Below, piece after piece: positions 1-14,701 of a stretch of DNA of 20,000 nt; positions within the stretch are counted from its first letter, which is position 1; the number at the start of each line of letters is the position of its first letter. The stretch lies in sequence record SRR20825010_2136. One strand, 5' to 3'. Under the pieces are notes generated by a model. The model saw only the letters and a program-made list of their open reading frames with translations, had not been told where the DNA came from and searched no databases. The position numbers and the translations under genes were made by a program.

Positions 1-1657
1 TTTTCCTGTCACCACTAATTAATTCTCCCGCCACAGGCACACTCTTAGAAGCATCCAAAACATGAATAACAGGTCCAGAATAGACAGGATCAATTTTTAC
101 TGCCGTATGAATTCTAGAAGTAGTTGCCCCACCTACCATAAGCGGAAGTGTCATCTTCCTCCTTTCCATTTCTTTAGCTACATGCACCATTTCATCAAGC
201 GAAGGAGTAATCAAGCCGCTTAGACCAATTACATCTACATTTTCCTCAATGGCTTTGTCTAGAATTTTATCAGCAGGAACCATTACGCCCATATCAATAA
301 TCTCATAGTTATTGCAGGCCAAAACCACCCCAACTATATTTTTACCTATATCATGAACATCACCTTTAACAGTGGCCATGAGGATTTTTCGCCCTGCGTC
401 AGTCTTGGTTTGATCACGATTGGGGTCATTACGTTTGGCTTCCTTCTCTTCTTCCAAATAAGGTAAAAGATAAGCCACGGCCTTTTTCATCACACGGGCA
501 CTCTTCACTACTTGTGGCAAAAACATCTTACCAGAACCAAAAAGGTCGCCCACTACATTCATACCATCCATTAAAGGTCCTTCAATAACTTTCAATGGAC
601 TTACATATTTCTGACGCGTTTCTTCCGTATCTTCATCGATAAACTCGATAATTCCTTTTACTAGAGCATGCTCAAGTCGTTTCTCAACTGATTCCTTCCT
701 CCAAGCATCGTCTTTTACTTGTTTCTTCCCCTCGCCCTTTACCGTTTCGGCAAAATCCAGTAAACGCTCGGTAGCATCAGGCCTACGGTTTAAAAGTACA
801 TCCTCCACCCTTTCTAATAAGTCCTTTGGTATGTCATCATAAATCTCCAGCATGGTTGGATTTACAATGCCCATGTCCATTCCATTTTGAATGGCATGAT
901 ATAGAAAGGCCGAGTGCATGGCTTCGCGTACAGGGTTATTTCCTCGGAATGAGAAGGATACATTACTTACTCCACCACTGACGTGAGCACCCCGTAGGTT
1001 TTCTCTAATCCATTTGGTCGCCATGAAAAAATCAACTGCATTATTGTTGTGTTCTTCAATACCCGTGGCCACAGGAAAAATATTTGGATCGAAGATGATG
1101 TCGTTTTTAGGGAACTTGACCACATCGACTAGAATATCGTATGAACGCTTACAGATTTCGATCCTCCTTTCGTAGGAATCCGCTTGCCCATCTTCGTCAA
1201 AGGCCATTACGATCACTGCTGCTCCATAACGCTTTACTTTCTTAGCGTGGTCAATAAATTGCTCTTCTCCTTCTTTTAAGGAAATCGAGTTTACTACACT
1301 CTTTCCTTGAACACACTTCAATCCAGCTTCGATAATTTCCCATTTCGATGAATCGATCATTATGGGAATTCGAGAAATATCTGGCTCAGCCGCTATCAGG
1401 TTCAGGAATTTAACCATCGCCTCTTTACCATCAAGCATTCCTTCGTCCATATTGATATCCAGAATTTGAGCACCACCGTCTACTTGGTCGCGTGCAACTT
1501 CTAAGGCATCATCAAATTTTTCTTCCAAAATCAAACGTGCAAAACGCTTTGAGCCAGTTACGTTCGTCCTCTCTCCAACGTTAACAAAGTTAGATTCAGG
1601 CGTAACTATAAGCGGCTCTAAACCTGAGAGTTGGAGTGTACTATTGTTGTTTCTCAT
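1..1657 (-). CDS. metH: B12-dependent methionine synthase, pterin-binding/cap/cobalamin-binding part (3' end runs off the window)
   Basis: Not in the ORF track because the stop is outside the window. Manual translation from ATG at 1657 gives [39 protein letters not shown], later LEHALVKGI (cap), [12 protein letters not shown] (DxHxxG cobalamin motif), [11 protein letters not shown] and GGATTS. Confidence 0.96.
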
Positions 1658-1689: not shown

Positions 1690-2703
1690 TTAATCTTGAA
1701 TTGCCTCACGTTCCAAGCTTCGCGGCTGATATTTAGCAGCCACATCCGCTATAGCCCTAATATGCTCTGGCGTGGTGCCGCAACAACCGCCAATAATGTT
1801 CAAGAAACCACTTGATAGAAAATCCTCTATCTGTTCAGCCATCTCTTCTGGTGATTCATCGTATTCCCCAAACTCGTTTGGCAAACCTGCATTAGGGTGA
1901 GCGCTGGTGAAAAAATCAGCCTTATCGGATAAGGTCTCCAAATATGGACGCAGTTGTTTGGCTCCTAAAGCACAATTAAGCCCTATTGAGAGCAAAGGAA
2001 TGTGAGAAACTGAAATTAAGAAAGCCTGAGTAGTTTGACCTGACAACGTTCTTCCACTGGCATCAGTAATAGTTCCAGAAACCATAATTGGCCACTCCTT
2101 TCCTTTTTCTTCAGAAACCTCTTCAATGGCAAAAAGTGCTGCTTTAGCATTCAAGGTGTCAAAAACCGTTTCAACCAAAAGTAAATCAACTCCCCCATCC
2201 GTAAGCGCGATTACTTGTTCCTTATATGCTTTTACCAATTGATCGAATGTAATTCCTCTAAAGCCCGGATCATTAACATCTGGTGACAATGAAGCCGTTC
2301 GGTTAGTTGGGCCAATGGAACCCGCTACAAAACGAGGTTTATGTGGTTCTTGAGCAGTTATTTCATCTGCTACTTCTCTAGCAATTTTAGCCGATTCGAA
2401 GTTGATTTCATACACAGCATCCTCCAAATGATAATCGGCCTGAGCAATAGTAGTTCCACTGAAAGTATTCGTTTCAACAATATCAGCCCCAGCTAAAAAA
2501 TACTGACGATGGATATCTTTTATGATTTCTGGACGAGTAATGGAAAGCAGGTCGTTATTTCCTTTAAGGGAATGTGAATGACCTTTGAATCTTTCTCCTT
2601 TAAAATCTTCTTCTTCCAAAGGGTGCCTTTGAATCATAGTGCCCATTGCACCATCTAAAACCAAGATTCGTTCTTTGAGAATTTCCTTAATATTTCTTGA
2701 CAT
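1690..2703 (-). CDS. metH: Homocysteine S-methyltransferase domain protein (stand-alone N-terminal part of split MetH)
   Basis: [18 protein letters not shown], Zn ligands in LNCALG and GGCCGT. ORF track start is 2712; 2703 is preferred (A at -3 as is typical for Bacteroidota, [14 protein letters not shown] start). Start choice is inference. Confidence 0.95.
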
Positions 2704-2752
2704 ATTTTGCATTTAGAGTGCTTATCAAGAAAGACAGGGAGAGTTTTACAGG

Positions 2753-2854
2753 CTCATCTTTTCCTCGAAAACAATTCGAGGCTAGGAGTTAGCACCAGAT
2801 TTTACAGGTTGCTAAGACATCACAGGGCCTAGTCCCTCAGTCTTTCTTGATAAG
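2753..2854 (-). ncRNA. SAM-I (S-box) riboswitch aptamer
   Basis: Minus strand reads CTTATC-AAGA-AAGACTGAGGGACTAGGCCCTGTGATGTCTT-AGCAACCTGTAAAATCTGGTGCT-AACTCCTAG-CCTCGAATTGTTTTCGAGG-AAA-AGATGAG: P1 CTTATC/GATGAG, kink-turn P2 GAGGGAC..GGCCC..GA, P3 GCAACC..GGTGC, P4 CCTCGAA/TTCGAGG. Directly upstream of methionine synthase. Confidence 0.95.
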
Positions 2855-2994
2855 TGATGCAAAGAAAGTAAATAAAGAACAAACCGAAGATCGTTATTCA
2901 AATTATTTCAAGAAAAAATGACAGGAACATACTTCCATAAAAATCCACATGATGATCCTTCTCACAATAATATTCTCTAATTTAATGCCCGTCT

Positions 2995-3903
2995 ATGAGT
3001 AGTCTAAGATTAGCAGCAATTGATATAGGTTCCAATGCCATAAGGTTTCAAGTCACAAACGTGTTGAGTTATGAAGGTCAACACATTTTCAAAAGACTAG
3101 AGTATGTAAGGTTTCCTTTACGACTGGGGCAAGATGTTTTTACACTCAAGAAAATTGGGCCTGAAAAGGAAGATAAGTTCTTGAGGCTAATGCATGCGTT
3201 TAAACTGCTCATTGATCTGTATGAAGTAGATGATTATTATGGTTGCGCCACCTCTGCAATGCGTGAAGCAGAAAATGGATACAAACTAGCCGAAAAGGTA
3301 AACCAGCTTTTAGGGCTAAAAATCAGAATTATTAGCGGAGACGCGGAAGCTGAACTCATTAATAAAGTGGTGCTCAAAAAGCTCGATAATGAGAACTATT
3401 TACATATTGACGTTGGCGGTGGCAGTACTGAACTCAACTTAATTTCCAATGGAAAGAAAGTGACCTCACAGTCTTTCAAAGTGGGTTCAGTAAGGAGCAT
3501 TGAGCAATTAGGCACCTCTGATATTCTTGGGAAAATCGATAAATGGGTTCTGGAAAACGTAACGGGAAAATATAAAGTAATCAAAGCCATAGGAACTGGT
3601 GGAAACATCAATAAGACCTACGAACTGGCAAATAAGCGTAAGGTAGATCGTGTTCTCACATTGAAAGAAGTTTTGGATGTCCAAACCTATGTATCAAGTT
3701 TCACTTTAGATGAAAGGATTCATAAACTTCAGCTTAACCCTGACAGGGCTGATGTACTAATTCCGGCTTCACATATTTATATGCATGTGATGAAATCTGC
3801 CAAATGTCGTAAAATTTTAGTACCGGATGTTGGTCTCAAAGATGGCATAATGCACATGTTGTACGAAAGAAATATTAAGGATACTGAGGTTGACTTTAAA
3901 TAA
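2995..3903 (+). CDS. ppx: Ppx/GppA family exopolyphosphatase, short form without C-terminal HD domain
   Basis: AAIDIGSNAIR, ATSAMREAEN, ISGDAEAE, IDVGGGSTE, DRADVLIPA and GLKDG motifs of ASKHA-fold Ppx/GppA. Confidence 0.92.
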   Translation: MSSLRLAAIDIGSNAIRFQVTNVLSYEGQHIFKRLEYVRFPLRLGQDVFTLKKIGPEKEDKFLRLMHAFKLLIDLYEVDDYYGCATSAMREAENGYKLAEKVNQLLGLKIRIISGDAEAELINKVVLKKLDNENYLHIDVGGGSTELNLISNGKKVTSQSFKVGSVRSIEQLGTSDILGKIDKWVLENVTGKYKVIKAIGTGGNINKTYELANKRKVDRVLTLKEVLDVQTYVSSFTLDERIHKLQLNPDRADVLIPASHIYMHVMKSAKCRKILVPDVGLKDGIMHMLYERNIKDTEVDFK

Positions 3904-4922: not shown

Positions 4923-7364
4923 TTACTCGTATCGCAAAGCCTCAATTGGATTGCGCCTAGCCACTTTGATGGATTGGAAAACCACCGTTAGAAAGGCAAC
5001 CCCAAGGATTAAAACTGCGGGTATGGCAAAGATGTACCAAGCCAGATCAATTTGATAGGAGAAAGTTTGAAGCCACTTTTCGGCACCAAAATAAGTAATT
5101 GGAAGGGCTATTATTACGGAAAGAAGAATAAGCTTCATGAAGTTTGTAGACAGCATTTGTATGATGCTAGAAACGTTTGCCCCCAGAACCTTTCTAATAC
5201 CAATCTCCTTAATCTTCTGCTGAACTTCGTAAAGCACTAAACCGAATAAACCTAAGATAGAAACAAAAATAGTGATAGAAGCAAAAACACCGAAAACGGT
5301 TCCAAACTGCTGATCGGCCTTATATTGCTCGTTAAACTTCTCATCAAGGAAGAAGTAATCAAAATCACTATTTGGATAAACAGTTCGATAAGCACTTTCA
5401 ATTTTAGCTACCATGGCTTTATATGACCCCCCTGAATTTTCAGCATTCAGTTTCACAGAAGCATAATTCCCATTATCTCCCTCCTTATCGAACCAAAAAA
5501 CGGTAGGGTCAACACTAGTTTTGAGTGAATGATGGTTGTAATCATTGAACACTCCTAAGACCTGAACTTCATTACCCCAAAAATAAACCTTAGCTCCTAT
5601 TGCTTCTTCGTTTGAATTAAGACCCAACATTCTTCTGGCTGTTTCATTTACCATGATAGAAGTAAGTTTTTCGCTAGCTGAAATATCTCTTTCATCGTTA
5701 AAATTACGACCAGCTAAAACCTGAAAGCCAAAAGTTGGAACAAATTCAGCATCTATCCTGTAGAAAAAGAAAACGCTATTTTGAGCTTCTTCATGGCCCT
5801 GGGCATAAATTCCTGTCCCGGTATTCATTTCGCCTGTTCCTTGACCAAACAAGGTTTCGGAATAAGTTACATTGGCCACTTGCGGCAATCGCTTTAGTTC
5901 GGTTTTGAAAGCTTGGCGTTTTTGCAATTGTGCCTCATTAGAATCGGCTACTAATGGCGATCGTACCACCACGGTTCGGTCTATATTTACCCCCAATTTT
6001 TGATTCCGCATTTCTTGCACCTGAGAATAAATCACCATCGTTCCAGCCAAAAGCACCATGGTAATCATAAATTGAAACACCACCAGTCCCTTTCTGAGTA
6101 CTATTCCTTTTTTGGAACTTGCAAGGCTACCTTTGAGTACTTCAAGCGGCTTATAGTTCGATAATACTAATGCCGGGTAAACACCCGAAGCCAGTGTACC
6201 TATAAAAAGCAGGCCCATGACAAAGCCAAAAAGCGCTAGTTCTGAGAACACGTTAAAACTTAAACTGAGTCCAGAGAACTGATTAAAGAAAGGCAAAACA
6301 CCCTGAATCAGCGTGAGTGTAAGTACCAAGGATAAAAAGTTAATCAGGAAAGACTCTGTCAAAAATTGACTTAACAAAGCGCCCCTATTAGAGCCCAAAA
6401 CCTTCCTTACCCCTACTTCTTTGCCTCTTTCCAAAGCTTTTGCGGTAGATAGATTTATGTAGTTTACCCAAGCAATCACCAGAACAAATAAAGCAACGAC
6501 TAATAAAATATTTACGGTTGCTTGATTTCCGTTCACATCTGCTTCAAAGGTTTTGTCAGAATTAAGGTGAATATCTGTTAGGGGTTGAATGATCAATTTT
6601 TCGGCCCTGTCAGCTTCTGTTTTGGCTAAAAAACTCTGATTGAAACGTTCGGTAAAAGCATTATCGAGCTTTGCTCCATTCGTTTTTAAATACATAAATT
6701 CATTATTCCCGCTCCAATTATTGTAATCCCATTCTAAGTATTGGACTCCTGTTGCATAAGAAATAAGGATATCGAATTTAAGATGCGCATTTTCCGGAAC
6801 ATCTTTAATCACTCCAGTCACTTGCATTGGAATTTCAGCCCCACCAGGTACCGCTGTTAGAATTTTACCCATTGGGTCTTCATCACCAAAATACTTTTTC
6901 GCCACGCTTTCGGTAATTACAATCTTGGCTACTTCATTCAATGCCGATGCTTTATCCCCTTGAGTCACTCCCCAATCAAAAACACTTAGCCAGCCCGGGT
7001 TGGCAAAATACACCTGGTCTTCATTAAAGGCTTTGTCCTCATTTTTGAAAAGAAAACGACCAATATGGCGCACCATGGCAAAGTCTTTTACTTCCGGAAA
7101 ATCCTCTATAGCCATAGGCCCAACTGCAGGGTAACATTGAGCATCGGAAGTTTGTAAAGTACCTTCGGCATATAAGTCTACTGTCACACGATAAATATCT
7201 TCGGCCTGTGGATGAAAACCATCGTAACTCATTTCGAATCGAGCATAAGTCAGAATCAGAAAACAGACCGTCATGCCAATCGTAAGTCCAAAGACATTGA
7301 TGATTGCGAATGACTTTCTCTTCTTGATGTTTCTTAAAGCGACTAATAAGTTATTTTTAAACAT
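4923..7364 (-). CDS. ABC transporter permease, MacB/FtsX family with duplicated domains (4th in operon)
   Basis: MFKNNLLVALRN start, TM1, periplasmic domain, KEVGVRKVLG and KEIGIRKVLGA FtsX motifs, C-terminal NPIEALRYE. Confidence 0.93.
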   Translation of the reverse strand: MFKNNLLVALRNIKKRKSFAIINVFGLTIGMTVCFLILTYARFEMSYDGFHPQAEDIYRVTVDLYAEGTLQTSDAQCYPAVGPMAIEDFPEVKDFAMVRHIGRFLFKNEDKAFNEDQVYFANPGWLSVFDWGVTQGDKASALNEVAKIVITESVAKKYFGDEDPMGKILTAVPGGAEIPMQVTGVIKDVPENAHLKFDILISYATGVQYLEWDYNNWSGNNEFMYLKTNGAKLDNAFTERFNQSFLAKTEADRAEKLIIQPLTDIHLNSDKTFEADVNGNQATVNILLVVALFVLVIAWVNYINLSTAKALERGKEVGVRKVLGSNRGALLSQFLTESFLINFLSLVLTLTLIQGVLPFFNQFSGLSLSFNVFSELALFGFVMGLLFIGTLASGVYPALVLSNYKPLEVLKGSLASSKKGIVLRKGLVVFQFMITMVLLAGTMVIYSQVQEMRNQKLGVNIDRTVVVRSPLVADSNEAQLQKRQAFKTELKRLPQVANVTYSETLFGQGTGEMNTGTGIYAQGHEEAQNSVFFFYRIDAEFVPTFGFQVLAGRNFNDERDISASEKLTSIMVNETARRMLGLNSNEEAIGAKVYFWGNEVQVLGVFNDYNHHSLKTSVDPTVFWFDKEGDNGNYASVKLNAENSGGSYKAMVAKIESAYRTVYPNSDFDYFFLDEKFNEQYKADQQFGTVFGVFASITIFVSILGLFGLVLYEVQQKIKEIGIRKVLGANVSSIIQMLSTNFMKLILLSVIIALPITYFGAEKWLQTFSYQIDLAWYIFAIPAVLILGVAFLTVVFQSIKVARRNPIEALRYE

Positions 7365-7400
7365 GGTATTGAATTAAGATTGTAAATGTTGTTTTGAGTT

Positions 7401-9851
7401 TTATTCGCAGCGAAGTGATTGAACAGGATTTAACCGAGCGACTTTTAGGGTTTGCCCTATCACAATACCTAAAGAGATAAATGCGATAACCGCCAATGGT
7501 AGCGCAAAGAAAACCCAACCAATATTGGTTCTAAATGCATAGCCTTCTAGCCATGATTCAGCACCCATATAAATTAAAGGAAGGCCGATAAAATTGGCCA
7601 ACAGAATAAGCCAAAGAAACTCCTTGGAGAGCAATTGCAAAACATCAACAACGGAAGCGCCCAAGACCTTTCTGATCCCAATTTCCTTTGTCCGCTGAAC
7701 AGCGGTGTACCCTACTAAACCAAAAAGTCCTAAACAAGCAATAGCGATTGTCAATAGAGAAAATAGGTTGAAAATGCTCCCAAATTGTTCGTCAGACTTA
7801 TAAAGGTTATTGAATCTGGCATCCATAAAACCATACTCGAATACATCCCCTGGATAGAACTCATTGTAGGTTTGCTCAATATATGATAATGTTTGTGGCA
7901 CATTATCGGCACTCACCCTAATTTGATATGTATCGCTATAGCCAAAATAAATAGGTATAATTAGCATAGGTTCTATGGACTCTTTAAGTGAGCGATGATG
8001 AAAATCCTCTGTTATGCCTACAATAGTCCATTCCTGTCCGAAGAACAATAACTTTTTATTCACAGCCTCTTCTGCAGTTTTAAACCCTAGTAATTTGGAT
8101 GCCTTCTCATTTATTATAGCTGCATCAATTAGCCGTGGATCATCTTTGTGATCTGCTGGGCGAAAAGGTCTCCCTGCTAGAAAATTGATTTGGTAAACAT
8201 CAAAAAACCTATAGTTAGCCCCCATCCGATTAAGCATATGACCTTCAGTTTGGCCCAGCCTTCTCACATCAAAAACCCTTGGCATACGGCTTCCAAAAAC
8301 ATTGGAGGATGTACCAGCCTTTATGACATGTGCATTTTGTTCAAGTTTGTTGAGAAAGGTGTTCATATGAACTACAATAGTCGTATCAAAATTTGCCAAT
8401 GAAGGCCCCTCCACGGTAACTACTTGCTCCATATTTAATCCCAAATCCTGACGCTTCATGAATTGGGTTTGTTTCACCACTAGATAAGTGCCAGCAATAA
8501 GTGCCGTAGAAAGAATAAATTGAAAAGTGACTAAGGACTTTCTCAAAATCCGACCTTGCGTACTTTTTCCATAATCTCCTTTAAGAGTCTGAAAAGGCTT
8601 AAAGCCAGAAAGGATAAAGGCTGGATAAATGCCTGATCCTATAGAGCCCAATAATAGAATAATAAGCATCCAGACAAACACTTGAAGTGAGCCAAGCTTC
8701 AAAAATATAAACTCTAACAAAGACAGGTTTTCTTCGACCAAATTGTTAAACGGAACTTGCAAGGCCTGTACGAGAGTAATTGCCAATACAAATGCCAAGA
8801 GGTTCAGCATCATTGATTCGGTCAAGTATTGTCTAATTAACTGAATCCGGCTGGCACCCACTACCTTTCGTATCCCTACCTCCTTAGCCCTTTGTAAGGA
8901 TTTGGAGGTTGTCAAGTTCACATAGTTCACCCAGGCCATGATTATAATAAAGCCAGCAATAATTATGAGAACCCAAACCATTTTACCATCTGAAGTTTCA
9001 TGAATTTCATACTCATAATCAGAATATAGATGTACATCCGCCAAAGGTTGAAGGTGGAACTTTTCGAGGTTTCCTGTCACTTCATCTCCCCTGAAGTACT
9101 TCTCTGAGAAATCAACGAACTTCTCCTGAAATTTGCTGTAGTCTACACTTTCGGCCAGTTCTATATAGTGGAAATAATCAGAATTGTTCCAACTAAAACG
9201 GGCAGATTCTCCCCAGAGACTAAAGATTGTTACTCGCGAAAGAAGTGCTTCATATGGAAGACTCGAATTAGTTGGTGGGTCTGCCACGACTCCAGAAAGC
9301 TGCCATTTTAATCTTTCTGAGCCCATTTCTAAAACAGTACCTAGGTAGTCTGTCCAATCACCCTCCGTAGTCTGAAAAATTTTCTCCGCCATCGACTCGG
9401 TCAATACAACCTGGTAATTCTCGCTCACAAAGGTCTCACGGTTTCCAGCTAGTACCTCGATATCAAACATTTCGAAAAATGAAGGTTCAACTAATAATGC
9501 CGAAGATATTTCTGAAGCCTTATTCTCATATAAAAAAACATTCCCATCAAAAGTGTTGACTGTGGTATAATTCACAATTTCTGGATAATCTTCTGCCATT
9601 TGAGGCCCCACCGCAGAGTAGGTAATCTGACCACGCTGAAGCAATTGATCGCCTTCAAAGCGTTCATTCATTACTCGATATATCTGATCTGACTTGTGGT
9701 GATACTTATCGAAGCTCAGCTGAAAAAAGGCATATTCTAAAATAAAGATACAAGCGGCCAAACCAATGGAAAGCCCGAGTATATTGACCAAAGAGAAAGT
9801 TGTGTTCTTTCTTAAAGACCTGAATGTTGTTTTGAGATAGTTTTTGAACAT
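7401..9851 (-). CDS. ABC transporter permease, MacB/FtsX family (3rd in operon)
   Basis: MFKNYLKTTFRSL, LQPLADVHL, KEVGIRKVVGA, KEIGIRKVLGAS, NPVQSLRCE. Confidence 0.93.
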   Translation of the reverse strand: MFKNYLKTTFRSLRKNTTFSLVNILGLSIGLAACIFILEYAFFQLSFDKYHHKSDQIYRVMNERFEGDQLLQRGQITYSAVGPQMAEDYPEIVNYTTVNTFDGNVFLYENKASEISSALLVEPSFFEMFDIEVLAGNRETFVSENYQVVLTESMAEKIFQTTEGDWTDYLGTVLEMGSERLKWQLSGVVADPPTNSSLPYEALLSRVTIFSLWGESARFSWNNSDYFHYIELAESVDYSKFQEKFVDFSEKYFRGDEVTGNLEKFHLQPLADVHLYSDYEYEIHETSDGKMVWVLIIIAGFIIIMAWVNYVNLTTSKSLQRAKEVGIRKVVGASRIQLIRQYLTESMMLNLLAFVLAITLVQALQVPFNNLVEENLSLLEFIFLKLGSLQVFVWMLIILLLGSIGSGIYPAFILSGFKPFQTLKGDYGKSTQGRILRKSLVTFQFILSTALIAGTYLVVKQTQFMKRQDLGLNMEQVVTVEGPSLANFDTTIVVHMNTFLNKLEQNAHVIKAGTSSNVFGSRMPRVFDVRRLGQTEGHMLNRMGANYRFFDVYQINFLAGRPFRPADHKDDPRLIDAAIINEKASKLLGFKTAEEAVNKKLLFFGQEWTIVGITEDFHHRSLKESIEPMLIIPIYFGYSDTYQIRVSADNVPQTLSYIEQTYNEFYPGDVFEYGFMDARFNNLYKSDEQFGSIFNLFSLLTIAIACLGLFGLVGYTAVQRTKEIGIRKVLGASVVDVLQLLSKEFLWLILLANFIGLPLIYMGAESWLEGYAFRTNIGWVFFALPLAVIAFISLGIVIGQTLKVARLNPVQSLRCE

Positions 9852-9862
9852 GAGTTATAAGT

Positions 9863-12280
9863 TTATTCGTAACGAAGTGAATCGGAAGGATTCGTATTGG
9901 CTGTCTTTAAAACTTGATAACCCACTGTAAACAAGGTGAGTACAAAGACAATCAGCATAGGAAAAATAAATAAAGTAGCTCCTATGTTTATGTGGTTTGC
10001 AAAATTGGCCAACCACTTGTTAAGGAAAATGTAGCCTATGGGTATAGAAATGAGGGACGCTAATAAAATCAGCCATGCATATTCTTTTGTTAAAAGAAGA
10101 ACTAACTGATGAACAGAAGCCCCTAGCACTTTTCTCACACTTACTTCTTTGGATCTTCTGTTGATATTGTAAAGTGATAATCCAAACAGACCGAGTACGG
10201 TAATCACGATCGCCAATATTGAAAAGAAGCTCACAATACTTCCGAAAAGGCGATCTGATTTGTATTGTCTATTGAAATAATCATCCAAGAAGAAATACTC
10301 GAAGTAGCTATTTGAATAACTTTGGTCAAAAGCTTGTTCAATTTGGGCCATTGTATTTTGTACATCTTCAGTACCCAACTTTATAGAATAGTATATTACC
10401 CTATCATGATGGGTGTAAATATGAGGTGCAATATTTGACTTTAATGACTCTTGACTGATATCGTCCACAATACCGACTAAAGTATAAGGTTCGGTTTCAT
10501 AATAAATGGTTTGGCCAATCCAGTCTGCTAGTCCTTCGCCTTGTAATAAATCCTTAGCAGCCGATAGACTCAGAATTAAAGACTGACTATCATTAAAGTC
10601 TTTACTAAAATTTCTACCATACAGGATTTCAATATCATAGAGGTCTATAAATGATTCATCCACAGATATATCTTTGGCATACAAAGCTTTATCATCCTCG
10701 TCTGGGCCCAGTGCTACAAACCTCATTCTTGAAATTTCATAGCCTGGAATCTCAGAAGAGGCTGCAATAGATTGCACTCCGCTCATCGTTTTCACATCGT
10801 TGATGAAAGCAGACTTGGTATCCTCCCTATTGGCTTCATCCATGAAGGGCTTTTTCACAATCAGGGTTTGGTCAATATCCATCCCCAAAGATTGGTTCTT
10901 CATAAAATTTAACTGCGATTGAACAGCCATTGTGCCTAAAATCAAAACCAAAGCCACCACATTTTGAAAAACCGTGAGTGATTTTCTAAGGGCTAAGCCA
11001 GAACTGCTGGTTTTTGCCTTTCCCTTTAAAACCACAGTGACTTTCTGTATTGAAAATAGCCAAGCTGGATACAGCGCAAAAAACAGAGAACCCAAGGTAA
11101 AGAGCAGAAGCAATACCAAGGTCTGATTTAGTGAGTCTTCACCAAAAAAATCAACCGGAATGCCTAATAAGTTTTTAAAGAACACACTGCTAAACTGTAA
11201 TAGCGTAAGTGCTAAGAGTATTGCAAGGAAATTGATGATAAGTCCTTCTATCAGAAATTGGCCAATGAGCTGTGACTTAATACCGCCCAAAACCTTTCTT
11301 ATACCCACTTCTTTACTTCTATCAATCAACTTAGCGGTGCTCAGGTTTACATAATTCACCCACGCAATGATCATGATGAAAATGCCAACTATGCTCAGGA
11401 AGCCCACAGTCGACTTATTGCCATTCACTTCCATTTCAAAAGAATGGTGCGAGGTTAGGTGGATGTCTTGAATGTTTTGTAGTTTAAAAGTCACCCCCTC
11501 ATCTTTAAACCAAGCACCTTCTATCCCTACAAAAGCCCTGTTGATTTTGTCTTCAAGCAAATTGGGATCACCCGAATTATTAAGTTTTAGATAAGTAAAA
11601 AAGTTACCCCATCCATAATTATTGTCCAAGTCCCATTCGCTAGGCAATGACTTAAAAGAAACCAGCACATCATATTTGAAATGTGTGTTTTCAGCAAGTT
11701 CTTCGAAAACACCAGTCACTTTAAAATCCTGCTCCATGTTTTTAAACCTTAGCAGCTTACCAATTGCAGAATCTTCACCAAAAAAACGTTCTTTATAAGA
11801 AGAGGAAATCACGACCTCATACGGATTTTCCAAGGAAGCTATGCTTTCCCCTTCCACCCAATTCATGGTAAAAATCTTTAATGCATCGTCATCAGCAAAA
11901 AATGCCTTGGGTATATTAAAAGTTTTGATATCTCCTGAGGGGGCGTAATAGCTGAGAGCAAACGACTGATAGATATAATCGTAGTGAATTACGCGGGCAA
12001 TATTTTCGACCTCTGGAATAGAGCTTTTGATTACAGGAGCCATTGGCGGAAATACTGACACCACTCCATCATCTGGAGACTCTTCTTCCGCTATTCTATA
12101 AATCCTAAATACCCTCTCGGCATTTTCAATATGACTGTCATAGCTCTTTTCGAATGACACATATTTGAAAATGAGTAGACAGGCCACCATAGAAAGAGAT
12201 AGCCCTAAGATATTAATCAGAGAAAAAACCTTATTTCTCTTTAAGTGGCGAATAGCAATAAGTATGTTGTTTTTGAACAT
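9863..12280 (-). CDS. ABC transporter permease, MacB/FtsX family (2nd in operon)
   Basis: MFKNNILIAIRHL, LQNIQDIHL, KEVGIRKVLG, KEVSVRKVLGAS, NPSDSLRYE. Confidence 0.93.
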   Translation of the reverse strand: MFKNNILIAIRHLKRNKVFSLINILGLSLSMVACLLIFKYVSFEKSYDSHIENAERVFRIYRIAEEESPDDGVVSVFPPMAPVIKSSIPEVENIARVIHYDYIYQSFALSYYAPSGDIKTFNIPKAFFADDDALKIFTMNWVEGESIASLENPYEVVISSSYKERFFGEDSAIGKLLRFKNMEQDFKVTGVFEELAENTHFKYDVLVSFKSLPSEWDLDNNYGWGNFFTYLKLNNSGDPNLLEDKINRAFVGIEGAWFKDEGVTFKLQNIQDIHLTSHHSFEMEVNGNKSTVGFLSIVGIFIMIIAWVNYVNLSTAKLIDRSKEVGIRKVLGGIKSQLIGQFLIEGLIINFLAILLALTLLQFSSVFFKNLLGIPVDFFGEDSLNQTLVLLLLFTLGSLFFALYPAWLFSIQKVTVVLKGKAKTSSSGLALRKSLTVFQNVVALVLILGTMAVQSQLNFMKNQSLGMDIDQTLIVKKPFMDEANREDTKSAFINDVKTMSGVQSIAASSEIPGYEISRMRFVALGPDEDDKALYAKDISVDESFIDLYDIEILYGRNFSKDFNDSQSLILSLSAAKDLLQGEGLADWIGQTIYYETEPYTLVGIVDDISQESLKSNIAPHIYTHHDRVIYYSIKLGTEDVQNTMAQIEQAFDQSYSNSYFEYFFLDDYFNRQYKSDRLFGSIVSFFSILAIVITVLGLFGLSLYNINRRSKEVSVRKVLGASVHQLVLLLTKEYAWLILLASLISIPIGYIFLNKWLANFANHINIGATLFIFPMLIVFVLTLFTVGYQVLKTANTNPSDSLRYE

Positions 12281-12292
12281 GCTGTTTTGAGT

Positions 12293-14701
12293 TTATTCGT
12301 AGCGAAGGGAATCAATTGGGTTTGATAAGGTTGATTTGACCGAGTGAAATGAAACGGTAACGGCCACCACCAAAAGACAGATACTTGTGGAAAGCAGGAA
12401 AATATCGGCTGTTATGGAAGTGCTATAAGCAAAACCCGAAAGCCACTGATCCATAAAGTAATAAGATATAGGTAGCGAAATGGCTGTGCTCAGCACAATC
12501 AACCAAATGGTTTGTCGGTTTAAAAGAATGAGTACATCGGAGAAACCTGCTCCTAGTACTTTTCTAATGCCAATTTCCTTAGTTCGATTGGCCATATTAA
12601 TACCCGTTAAGCCAAAGAGCCCAATACAGGCTATGATTACCCCAAGTACAGAGGCTACATTAATAATCTCTTTCCATTTTTGGCTGTCCTTGTAGCGGCT
12701 GTTGAGGTAGTCGTTAAGAAAGCTAACCTCAATTTCCTTTTCAGGAACGATTTTCTCTGCGGCAGCTTTAATGGCAGCTATCCCCGCTTCAGTTTTCCCC
12801 GCTCCAATTTTTACGAACAAATCCGAAAGACCATTGCTATTGGCAACATTGAAACGAAAAGGCCCGATAGATTTCTGAAGTGATTCAAAATGAAAATCGT
12901 TTACTACACCTTGAATATCTTTTTGCGTAGCATTATACATTGCGGTATCTGACTTGTAAAGATCAAAGAGCGTTTTATTTATTATGCTTCTGCTCTCCAA
13001 TGCCTCTATTCCCATTTCCTCACTAAAATATTCTCCTTCCAAAAGTGGAATGCCAAAGGCTTCAAAGAAATCGAAATCAACCCGAGCGCTTTGTACCCAG
13101 TATTGCACGTTGTTAATCACAATACTGCCCCGACTCGTTGAAGGAGTGAAAATCCCGTTCACACCAGTAACTGATTCAATAGCTGTATTTGAAGTCAGCT
13201 CCTGCTTCATCAATTGAGTTTTTCCCCAAAGTCCACGAACGTAAACAATCTGTTCTTTGTTAAACCCTAAATCTTTGGTATTCATATAATCGAACTGGCG
13301 CGTCATGGCCAATCCCATTGAAATAAAGAAGAGGCAAAGCACAAATTGAAACACTACCATTGACTTAATTAAAGCAGGTTTAATTTTGTAAGTAGTATTT
13401 CCCTTAAGGCCATTCACCACCTTAAACCTTGATAAAACTTGAGCAGGATAAATGCCAGCTAAAAAAGCCAACAATAAAGAAAAAAGCAGACTAAAACTGA
13501 GTATTTGAATGTTTTCAGATATGCTTAACTCAATTGACTTACCAGCCAACTCATTGAATCTAGGCAGCACTAGTTGCATTAAAGTAAAACCACCTACAAC
13601 GGAGAAGGCAGAAATAAGGAGCGCCTCAATATAAAACTGAGTCCGCAAATAACCTCCATGTGCTCCCATTACTTTCCTTACAGAAACTTCGAGTTGCCTG
13701 CTTCCCGAAGAAGCCACATTGATAGAAAGGTAATTGATACAGGCAATCAGGAGGATGAGTAATCCAATACCAATAAGCACAATTGAATAAAGTGGAGATG
13801 AGCTCTCTCCATAACTTACGCTAGGATCGAGGTATAAATCTTGAATGTTCTTCAAACCGTACTGCACAACAGGATTGGATTCTGAAAGCTTGAGCATTTC
13901 GCGCTGACTAGAGATTTCATCGGCAAACCTCTCAGTATAAACCTTACTTATTTTGTTACTTACCAAGCTGGCATTCTCTGGGTTATTGAGAAGTAAAAAG
14001 CAAGAAATGGCATTATAATACCAGTTATCTTTATCCTCTTTAAAGTAATCAGAATTCGCGAGATTAAGTACTATGTTAAGCTTCAGGGAAGAGTGTACCG
14101 GCTTTTCTATTACTCCCGAAATTATGTAAACATCAGGTTGTCCATTTCCACTTGAAAAGGTTTCTCCCACCACATCTAACCGTCCAAAAAGCGTCATTGC
14201 CATTTCGTCTGTGATCACCGCATTTTTCATATCTTTTAGTGCAGTGCTAGGTTGACCATACAAAAAGGTAAAGCTGAAAGACTCAAAGAAATCTGGTTCT
14301 ACATAGTTGACAAACTCGAAAAGTTTCTTTTCATCTTTGTTAATACTTATGTAATTAGATTCAACCCTAATCACTTTATCAATTTCAGGCACACTTTCTC
14401 TCACCAATTCTAAAAAAGGTAAATTGTGAGAAATCCCCTTCTCAATTCCTTTGTCTGGTGTGGAATCAAACCAACCGAGTTCCAGTTTTGGGTCGTCCGT
14501 TTTGAAATCCGTTTTATAGAGAAGAAACAGATTGTCTCCCTTGGCGTGGAATCCATCATAACTCCACTCATCTTTCACAAATACACAAACCAATAAGCCT
14601 ATCATCACGGCAATGGACAGGCTCGTGAAATTTATAGTGCTGTATAACCTTCGCTTGGAAAGGTTTCTAAAGGACATTTTGAGGTGGTTCCTGATCATCA
14701 T
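12293..14701 (-). CDS. ABC transporter permease, MacB/FtsX family (1st in operon, most divergent)
   Basis: MIRNHLKMSFRNL, ACINY, LEVSVRKVMGA, KEIGIRKVLGA, NPIDSLRYE. Start is 14701 or 14698. Confidence 0.92.
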   Translation of the reverse strand: MMIRNHLKMSFRNLSKRRLYSTINFTSLSIAVMIGLLVCVFVKDEWSYDGFHAKGDNLFLLYKTDFKTDDPKLELGWFDSTPDKGIEKGISHNLPFLELVRESVPEIDKVIRVESNYISINKDEKKLFEFVNYVEPDFFESFSFTFLYGQPSTALKDMKNAVITDEMAMTLFGRLDVVGETFSSGNGQPDVYIISGVIEKPVHSSLKLNIVLNLANSDYFKEDKDNWYYNAISCFLLLNNPENASLVSNKISKVYTERFADEISSQREMLKLSESNPVVQYGLKNIQDLYLDPSVSYGESSSPLYSIVLIGIGLLILLIACINYLSINVASSGSRQLEVSVRKVMGAHGGYLRTQFYIEALLISAFSVVGGFTLMQLVLPRFNELAGKSIELSISENIQILSFSLLFSLLLAFLAGIYPAQVLSRFKVVNGLKGNTTYKIKPALIKSMVVFQFVLCLFFISMGLAMTRQFDYMNTKDLGFNKEQIVYVRGLWGKTQLMKQELTSNTAIESVTGVNGIFTPSTSRGSIVINNVQYWVQSARVDFDFFEAFGIPLLEGEYFSEEMGIEALESRSIINKTLFDLYKSDTAMYNATQKDIQGVVNDFHFESLQKSIGPFRFNVANSNGLSDLFVKIGAGKTEAGIAAIKAAAEKIVPEKEIEVSFLNDYLNSRYKDSQKWKEIINVASVLGVIIACIGLFGLTGINMANRTKEIGIRKVLGAGFSDVLILLNRQTIWLIVLSTAISLPISYYFMDQWLSGFAYSTSITADIFLLSTSICLLVVAVTVSFHSVKSTLSNPIDSLRYE

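Follow-up and report, generated by a model that had tools for sequence, protein, structure and literature searches.

The 20,000-nucleotide (nt) stretch of sequence record SRR20825010_2136 analyzed here, hereafter the window, carries on its minus strand a SAM-I (S-box) aptamer, the sensor domain of a predicted S-adenosylmethionine (SAM) riboswitch. The aptamer ends 47 nt 5′ of the split metH genes for methionine synthase, which lie on the same strand. Our analysis revealed that one strand of the leader is complementary both to the 5′ arm of the aptamer and to the first codons of metH. We consider it likely that exchange of this strand constitutes a SAM-triggered translational OFF switch that operates independently of a Shine–Dalgarno (SD) sequence. 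The elements of the locus are the following.

2751–2856, minus strand: SAM-I (S-box) aptamer, helices P1–P4 with a short P3 (RF00162)
2833–2854, minus strand: strand A, the aptamer 5′ arm (P1 5′ strand, junction J1/2, P2 5′ strand, AGGGA), part of inverted repeat I1 and conserved across the 66 aligned leaders
2721–2740, minus strand: strand B, the switching strand, complementary to A and, at 2732–2723, also to C
2693–2702, minus strand: strand C, the UG of the start codon plus codons 2–4, predicted to pair with B when the aptamer is closed
2701–2703, minus strand: likely start codon AUG, where the N-termini of the orthologs align
1690–2703, minus strand: first operon gene, homocysteine S-methyltransferase module of the split methionine synthase (PF02574, E 2e-100)
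2–1657, minus strand: second gene, pterin- and B12-binding modules of the split methionine synthase (PF00809, PF02607, PF02310), continuing past the window end

The open reading frame (ORF) downstream of the aptamer extends over 1690–2712, and the AUG at 2703 is its likely start (MSRNIKEIL...). An in-frame alternative AUG at 2712–2710 falls inside the loop and the inner 3-base-pair (bp) stem of the hairpin that B and C can form. The two metH ORFs are separated by a gap of 32 nt (1658–1689), and the second contains one pterin-binding and two B12-binding domains. Methionine synthase is divided here into a homocysteine-binding protein of 337–340 amino acids (aa) and a separate pterin/B12-binding protein, a form common to 80/80 related loci as judged on the first ORF only. 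The closest protein relatives are from Roseivirga (Cytophagales; 94–96% identity), and orthologs of the first ORF are 72–96% identical across Cytophagales and Flavobacteriales. The window is part of a Roseivirga-like Cytophagales genome.

An earlier note on this DNA, made from the letters alone, had named the aptamer as SAM-I, and the search with Rfam model RF00162 bears this out. The match at 2856–2751 (minus strand) scores 68.6 bits, above the gathering score of 44.4 (E 2.1e-14), spans positions 1–108 of the full model without truncation, and is the sole Rfam match in the 20-kb window. The alignment to the consensus retains P1, P2 (GAGGGA...GGCCC), P4, and the conserved segments GCAACC and GGUGCUAA. 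Judged by these features, the aptamer is an ordinary member of the SAM-I family, and it would be expected to bind SAM. The P3 of the window (2800–2813, minus strand) lacks 7 model positions and has approximately 4 pairs, with one U-U mismatch; a very short P3 is a feature of the Roseivirga clade, whereas P3 stems are 10–25 nt longer in other orthologs. Three Roseivirga genomes (L082, L084 and L085; G001–G003) each contain exactly two SAM-I matches, one of which is the metH leader. The other lies 159–167 nt upstream of a metX-like (homoserine O-acetyltransferase-like) gene, and analysis of this second leader in the three genomes by RNAduplex and minimum free energy (MFE) folding gave no clear A/B/C or terminator design.

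Strand A pairs with strand B over 15 perfect bp (2854–2840 with 2735–2721) and, beyond a 2-nt bulge (UG at 2839–2838), over a further 5 bp (2837–2833 with 2740–2736). A repeat search returned this pairing as inverted repeat I1, with arms at 2721–2742 and 2833–2854, and the 15-mer has two exact occurrences in the window, one per strand. The A:B helix dominates the unconstrained MFE structure (−53.0 kcal/mol, z −3.9), and 0/200 shuffled sequences folded as low. Nucleotides 2732–2723 of B can instead pair with C at 2702–2693 over 10 bp including one G-U. This B:C pairing was found as inverted repeat I3, with an 8-nt exact core, and it forms the main MFE helix when the leader is folded without the aptamer; the same fold contains an inner GCA/UGC stem over AUG 2712 and an outer 3-bp extension. 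The B:C duplex has a calculated energy of −10.6 kcal/mol versus −4.7 ± 1.8 kcal/mol when the target region was dinucleotide-shuffled 1000 times (p = 0.007). Since 2732–2723 takes part in both helices, A:B and B:C are mutually exclusive. The region of C is moreover a degenerate direct copy of the region of A (repeat D1, 2685–2711 versus 2835–2861, 27 nt, 70% identity), as expected if both must pair with the same strand B. The earlier note had described A:B, B:C and the inner pairing over AUG 2712 in these terms, and every one of its sequence statements was confirmed.

For comparison, one genome per species was scanned, which gave 80 loci encoding this protein at 72–96% identity from Roseivirga, Cyclobacteriaceae, Flammeovirgaceae, Chryseolinea/Ohtaekwangia, Marinoscillum, Crocinitomicaceae, and other Bacteroidota. 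One locus is truncated (L025), two are without SAM-I upstream (L026 and L054), and SAM-I lies upstream in 77/80. Among these 77, a spacer of ~37–71 nt with a strand complementary to the aptamer 5′ arm is present in 72. Three others (L028, L036 and L077) carry a GC-rich hairpin and T-tract, the GC-rich stem being followed by 5–9 T. In the remaining two (L060 and L079), the spacers are long (147 and 192 nt) and contain other structures. The three terminator-type leaders come from Flavobacteriales-like metagenome-assembled genomes. From these sequences, the expression platform is one that has been exchanged repeatedly on a single orthologous gene, because terminators in three loci and long spacers in two follow the same aptamer.

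The leader alignment comprises the window and 65 non-identical short-spacer loci (n = 66); it omits the three terminator types, the exact duplicate L074, and six loci missed by the search pattern. The core blocks of the aptamer are invariant in 66/66 leaders. A:B is paired in 85.7% of cells, versus 40–53% when the 3′ partner is slid by 1–3 columns. Compensatory changes on both sides occur at three pairs, namely columns 6/166 (CG 53, GC 6, UA 3, UG 2), 7/165 (CG 44, AU 17), and 14/158 (AU 40, GC 8), and the covariation score was reached by 0/500 shuffles. Thus, A:B is clearly supported by comparative analysis of the leader sequences.

The partner of B in the other helix moves between lineages. 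In the largest clade (34 leaders, hereafter the main clade), C is CCAGAAAGAG directly 5′ of the GUG start, and its last G is the start-codon G. The forms of C are as follows, with positions relative to the start codon.

Large GTG-start clade: CCAGAAAGAG-UG, −9..+1
Roseivirga clade, including the window: UGUCAAGAAA, +2..+11
L006–L008: GCUAUCGA or GCUAUUGA, codons 2–4
L009, L017 and L023: AUGGC(U)
L035, L040 and L051: CUAUGAAAA, across the AUG
L069: CUAUGAG
L049: ACAGGAAA, codons 2–4
GGGCUCUCUGG group: GGGAGAGCU, −11..−3
L022, L033 and L063: GAACAACU, codons 4–7

Clades that differ in A also differ in B, and C changes to match, with its position ranging from −10..+1 to +2..+11. Whether in the 5′ untranslated region (UTR) or shifted into the codons, the best partner of B always overlaps or adjoins the start codon, and the same columns of B are used by both helices across the leaders. 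Within the main clade, B:C is paired in 87% of cells versus 46–62% when slid. A shuffle control for this clade is uninformative because B is invariant there, and the evidence for B:C consists of the slid control and the between-clade comparison. Column 7 is the most variable position of A. In the 54 leaders with a B:C pair at this column, the A/B/C triple is C/G/C in 31, A/U/A in 11 and wobble-compatible (A/U/G or C/G/U) in 8, and B does not match A in 4. The start codon is GTG in 33/34 main-clade leaders (alignment A2, e.g. L072:1144–1206), with ATG in L057, and the start-codon G forms the last pair of the B:C helix; this suggests that RNA pairing influences the choice of start codon.

The 66 leaders were clustered at 75% identity of the platform columns, and one representative of each of the resulting 37 clusters was compared with 1000 shuffles. 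The B:C duplex reached p ≤ 0.05 in 26/37 representatives. We also calculated the opening cost, which is the ensemble cost of holding the interval −18..+12 relative to the start codon free of base pairs, under two conditions: (i) the whole leader unconstrained, in which the anti-aptamer helix forms, and (ii) the platform alone, with the aptamer sequestered as with SAM. Sequestering the aptamer raised the cost by at least 2 kcal/mol in 52/66 leaders and in 27/37 cluster representatives, the median difference over the 66 leaders being 4.4 kcal/mol; the difference was 0.5 kcal/mol or less in 7/66. In the window, the cost rose from 3.9 kcal/mol (unconstrained) to 9.0 kcal/mol (aptamer sequestered). 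Shuffled controls (n = 198, dinucleotide shuffle downstream of B) gave a median difference of 1.3 kcal/mol, with 33% reaching 2 kcal/mol, and the three terminator-type orthologs gave differences of −1.2 to 0.0 kcal/mol.

Several observations speak against a masking role of B:C. The hairpin in the window is AU-rich, with a 20-nt loop and approximately −11 kcal/mol, and is only moderately stable. In the main clade, the changes in B:C are one-sided only (UA to UG in 20 cells, GC to GU in 7), and no compensatory B:C pair was found in its 34 leaders. The column 7 triples come from a duplex search that returns standard pairs only by construction, so that, as sequence evidence, they point to coincidence of register and exclusivity and not to independent covariation. 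B:C gave p > 0.05 in 11/37 representatives (L010, L013, L016, L020, L023, L030, L034, L043, L069, L070 and L078), with L013, L069 and L078 near the threshold (p = 0.053–0.056). The opening-cost difference was below 2 kcal/mol in 10/37 representatives (e.g. L010, L016, L023, L043 and L075) and negative in L030 and L066. Both the Fisher combined p for B:C over the 37 clusters (8e-26) and the Mann–Whitney p for the opening costs of leaders versus controls (3e-13) overstate independence, as the clusters and sequences are still related. Lastly, secondary structure at full length favors the anti-aptamer (ON) state by 12.7 kcal/mol, since the leader 2856–2670 folds to −36.9 kcal/mol with the Rfam aptamer pairs enforced versus −49.6 kcal/mol unconstrained.

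Alternatively, only A:B could be functional, for instance in tuning ligand sensitivity or as part of another mechanism, and B:C could be incidental, as a pyrimidine-rich B finds partners in any purine-rich, A-rich start region. Shuffled purine-rich targets do still pair appreciably with B (null means −4.5 to −11 kcal/mol), and the 11/37 representatives that do not beat the 5% tail and the lack of double changes in the main clade fit such an account. The majority of representatives, however, beat 95% of their shuffles, and the best partner, even when relocated, remains at or adjacent to the start codon. In addition, the region of C in the window repeats that of A for 27 nt, lineages with altered A and B also have altered C, and the terminator-type orthologs lack the opening-cost effect. 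We therefore regard an incidental B:C as improbable. The comparison of orthologous leaders proposed in the earlier note came out in favor of its reading: the pairing of the switching strand with the start region recurs at the start codon in most lineages, although double changes within the main clade were not found.

The output signals of known platforms were also searched for. The earlier note had stated that the leader has neither a terminator nor an SD sequence, and both statements agree with our results: there are 0 terminator-like sites in 2400–3100, and GGAG, GAGG, or AGGA at −22..−4 occurs neither before this gene nor before any of the 11 window ORFs of at least 150 aa. What the sequestering strand covers is the start codon and codons 2–4, not an SD. 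The main-clade C strand (AGAAAGAG) was considered as an SD, and this was rejected as its main function because it is without a GGAG, GAGG, or AGGA core and also because PMC7797042 and PMC9976891 describe Bacteroidia ribosomes as sequestering their anti-SD. The lineage is described as one without use of SD pairing (statements in PMC6847099, PMC9976891 and PMC7797042), and in the SD-less Flavobacterium johnsoniae, initiation is reported to be tuned by mRNA structure around the start codon (PMC6847099). The order of elements in the leader (aptamer, switching strand, downstream hairpin) is that of terminator-type S-box leaders, and L028, L036 and L077 do use terminators, which would fit a B:C hairpin acting as an unconventional intrinsic terminator or pause hairpin, with transcriptional control as in classical S-box leaders. 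The B:C hairpin, however, has a loop of 14–25 nt and an AU-rich stem followed by A-rich coding sequence without a T-tract or any terminator-like site, while the real ortholog terminators are GC-rich with 5–9 T, which indicates that those lineages use canonical signals. This makes a terminator or pause function of B:C very improbable.

The likely 5′ end of the transcript lies directly at the aptamer, next to the following element.

2860–2867, minus strand: putative sigma-A −7 promoter box TTTCTTTG (consensus TAnnTTTG), assigned from its position relative to P1

In 57/70 leaders, TTTG starts 9 nt before P1 and is separated from it by 5 nt, and the −7 box of Bacteroidota sigma-A is reported as TAnnTTTG at −12 to −5 (a statement in PMC9723704). 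Transcription would accordingly begin at about 2855, one base before P1. Inverted repeat I2 (2857–2876 with 2693–2712, 20 nt, 75% complementary) was considered as a fourth strand and rejected, as 2857–2876 overlaps the presumed −7 box and is probably upstream of the transcription start; if the transcript began further upstream, I2 would supply a fourth strand that could cover both AUGs. Matches in RNA data were limited to small shares of two metatranscriptome runs, where related-strain contigs (90–99% alike) span 2550–2843 and 2609–2769. This is weak evidence that the leader and the gene start share one contig in RNA libraries, as contigs reveal neither transcript ends nor strand nor expression level and the libraries may contain carried-over DNA.

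Taken together, the comparative analysis supports the three-strand logic put forward in the earlier note, in which SAM places the mask on the AUG and the anti-aptamer helix frees it when SAM is absent. The transcript would probably start at P1, so that the aptamer (2856–2751) is made first and strand B emerges over the next ~30 nt. At low SAM, B would invade P1 and P2, displace their 3′ strands, and form the 20-bp helix with A; the start region, single-stranded and A-rich, would then be open and metH translated (ON). At high SAM, P1, J1/2 and P2 would be locked and the invasion of B blocked, provided that SAM binds in the ~30-nt window before B appears. Strand C would emerge 20–28 nt after B and capture it, and the resulting B:C hairpin would bury the start codon and trap AUG 2712 in its loop and inner stem (OFF). 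An SD-blind 30S ribosomal subunit, which needs an unstructured start region according to PMC6847099, would not load in this state. We infer that the switch works in this direction and that it regulates translation, and the direction fits physiology because SAM represses methionine synthesis.

The calculated energies bear on how the OFF state could be reached. The advantage of the ON state is 20 kcal/mol with the 3′ end at 2721, when B has just been transcribed, and is smaller once C is available. Because the energies favor the ON state, the OFF state needs tertiary contacts and the binding energy of SAM, which are outside the energy model. Most likely it also relies on kinetic trapping, so that the switch would probably be under kinetic control; strand-exchange riboswitches are described as kinetically controlled in PMC10907184, which agrees with this.

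The regulated step could instead be at the RNA level. In that case, SAM would cause transcription to terminate through Rho, or the mRNA to decay faster, early in the coding region; this could follow from the block of translation or be independent of it, and B:C would mainly keep ribosomes off to give Rho or an RNase access. A review describes other riboswitches that act both on translation and through Rho (PMC10907184), and according to statements in 10.1101/867226, Bacteroides TPP (thiamine pyrophosphate) riboswitches located more than 40–50 nt from the start act on the mRNA level and those within 5 nt act on translation; the spacer here is 47 nt. On the other side, there is no intrinsic terminator, and the platforms have start-codon masking, and not a C-rich rut-like tract, as their conserved feature. 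We consider an RNA-level output unlikely, and it would be largely compatible with translational control by strand exchange because the block of translation would come first.

Elsewhere in the window, a tandem array of four ORFs of 802–816 aa each occupies 4923–14701 (minus strand). In the one member scanned (ORF 4923–7364), MacB-like periplasmic core and FtsX permease domains were identified; the four ORFs appear to be paralogs that encode ABC-type permeases.

The proposed switch shares features with several known systems. Classical Bacillota S-box riboswitches use a terminator/antiterminator pair. The metH leader resembles these classical leaders (e.g. of the Bacillus subtilis met genes) in its RF00162 aptamer, in a downstream strand that competes with the aptamer helices, and in the proposed logic that high SAM turns methionine genes off. 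In contrast, there is no terminator here; the competitor pairs with the 5′ arm of P1/P2, and the output is a hairpin over the start codon. The use of terminators and antiterminators by S-box leaders is also stated in general terms in PMC2258182. SAM-I Xcc of Xanthomonas campestris likewise combines a SAM-I aptamer with control of met genes mainly at translation, and its start codon is described as masked by an "anti-AUG" together with masking of the SD (PMC7270179, in part). It differs in that, as described in the same source, Xcc has an anti-SD to sequester its SD and is also a sensor of uncharged initiator tRNA, whereas the window is without an SD and a single strand would both mask the start and pair with the aptamer arm.

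The thiM TPP riboswitch of E. coli and the add adenine riboswitch of Vibrio vulnificus have a comparable three-strand arrangement of antisequestor and sequestor with exclusive helices, as described in parts of PMC2258182 and PMC10907184. Those riboswitches sequester the SD, or the ribosome-binding site and the AUG, while here the start and early codons (window) or an SD-less −10..+1 region (relatives) would be sequestered. The TPP riboswitches of Bacteroides thetaiotaomicron thiamine transporters belong to the same SD-less phylum, and their translational control was shown experimentally (10.1101/867226). According to the passages cited from that report, they lie <5 nt from the start codon and direct occlusion is suggested, the molecular details being left open by the authors; in contrast, the metH leader has a 47-nt spacer with an explicit strand-exchange platform.

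As these sources describe it, the antisequestor/sequestor logic of strand exchange is itself a known class (PMC2258182, PMC10907184). The proposed metH platform differs from known systems in four respects: it has no SD; it would mask the start codon and first codons, or −10..+1; the mask is the strand that unfolds the aptamer; and the target of the mask is a copy of the aptamer arm. A full-text literature search, which did not cover subscription journals and supplements, found no description of this platform, and a prior description is possible. We lean towards the view that SAM-I riboswitches of Cytophagales and Flavobacteriales share a common SD-free solution, in which a degenerate copy of the aptamer 5′ arm is placed on the start codon, and that this solution forms an undescribed class typical of the phylum. 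With the same reserve, a single anti-aptamer strand would serve both as the read-out of the sensor and as the mask of the start codon, and the copy would be evolutionarily mobile. The copy is located at −10..+1 in most lineages and inside codons 1–4 in Roseivirga and a few others.

Riboswitch platforms are known mostly from Bacillota, where they use terminators, and from Proteobacteria, where they sequester the SD. In the SD-blind Bacteroidia, the mechanism of translational riboswitches has been left open even where control was measured, as the cited passages of 10.1101/867226 indicate. The metH locus and its ~70 natural variants offer an explicit, testable model, in which the strand that opens the aptamer alternatively masks the start codon, and the variants are, in effect, a set of natural mutants whose masked segment shifts between UTR and coding sequence. 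The model illustrates how RNA structure may constrain the first codons and the choice of start codon, and it may provide design rules for SD-free synthetic switches in Bacteroidota, for which genetic tools are few. If it is correct, the arm copy would shape the gene wherever it is placed, as with the GUG start whose G closes the helix in nearly all main-clade leaders (33/34), and N-terminal codons of metH would owe their sequence to RNA pairing.

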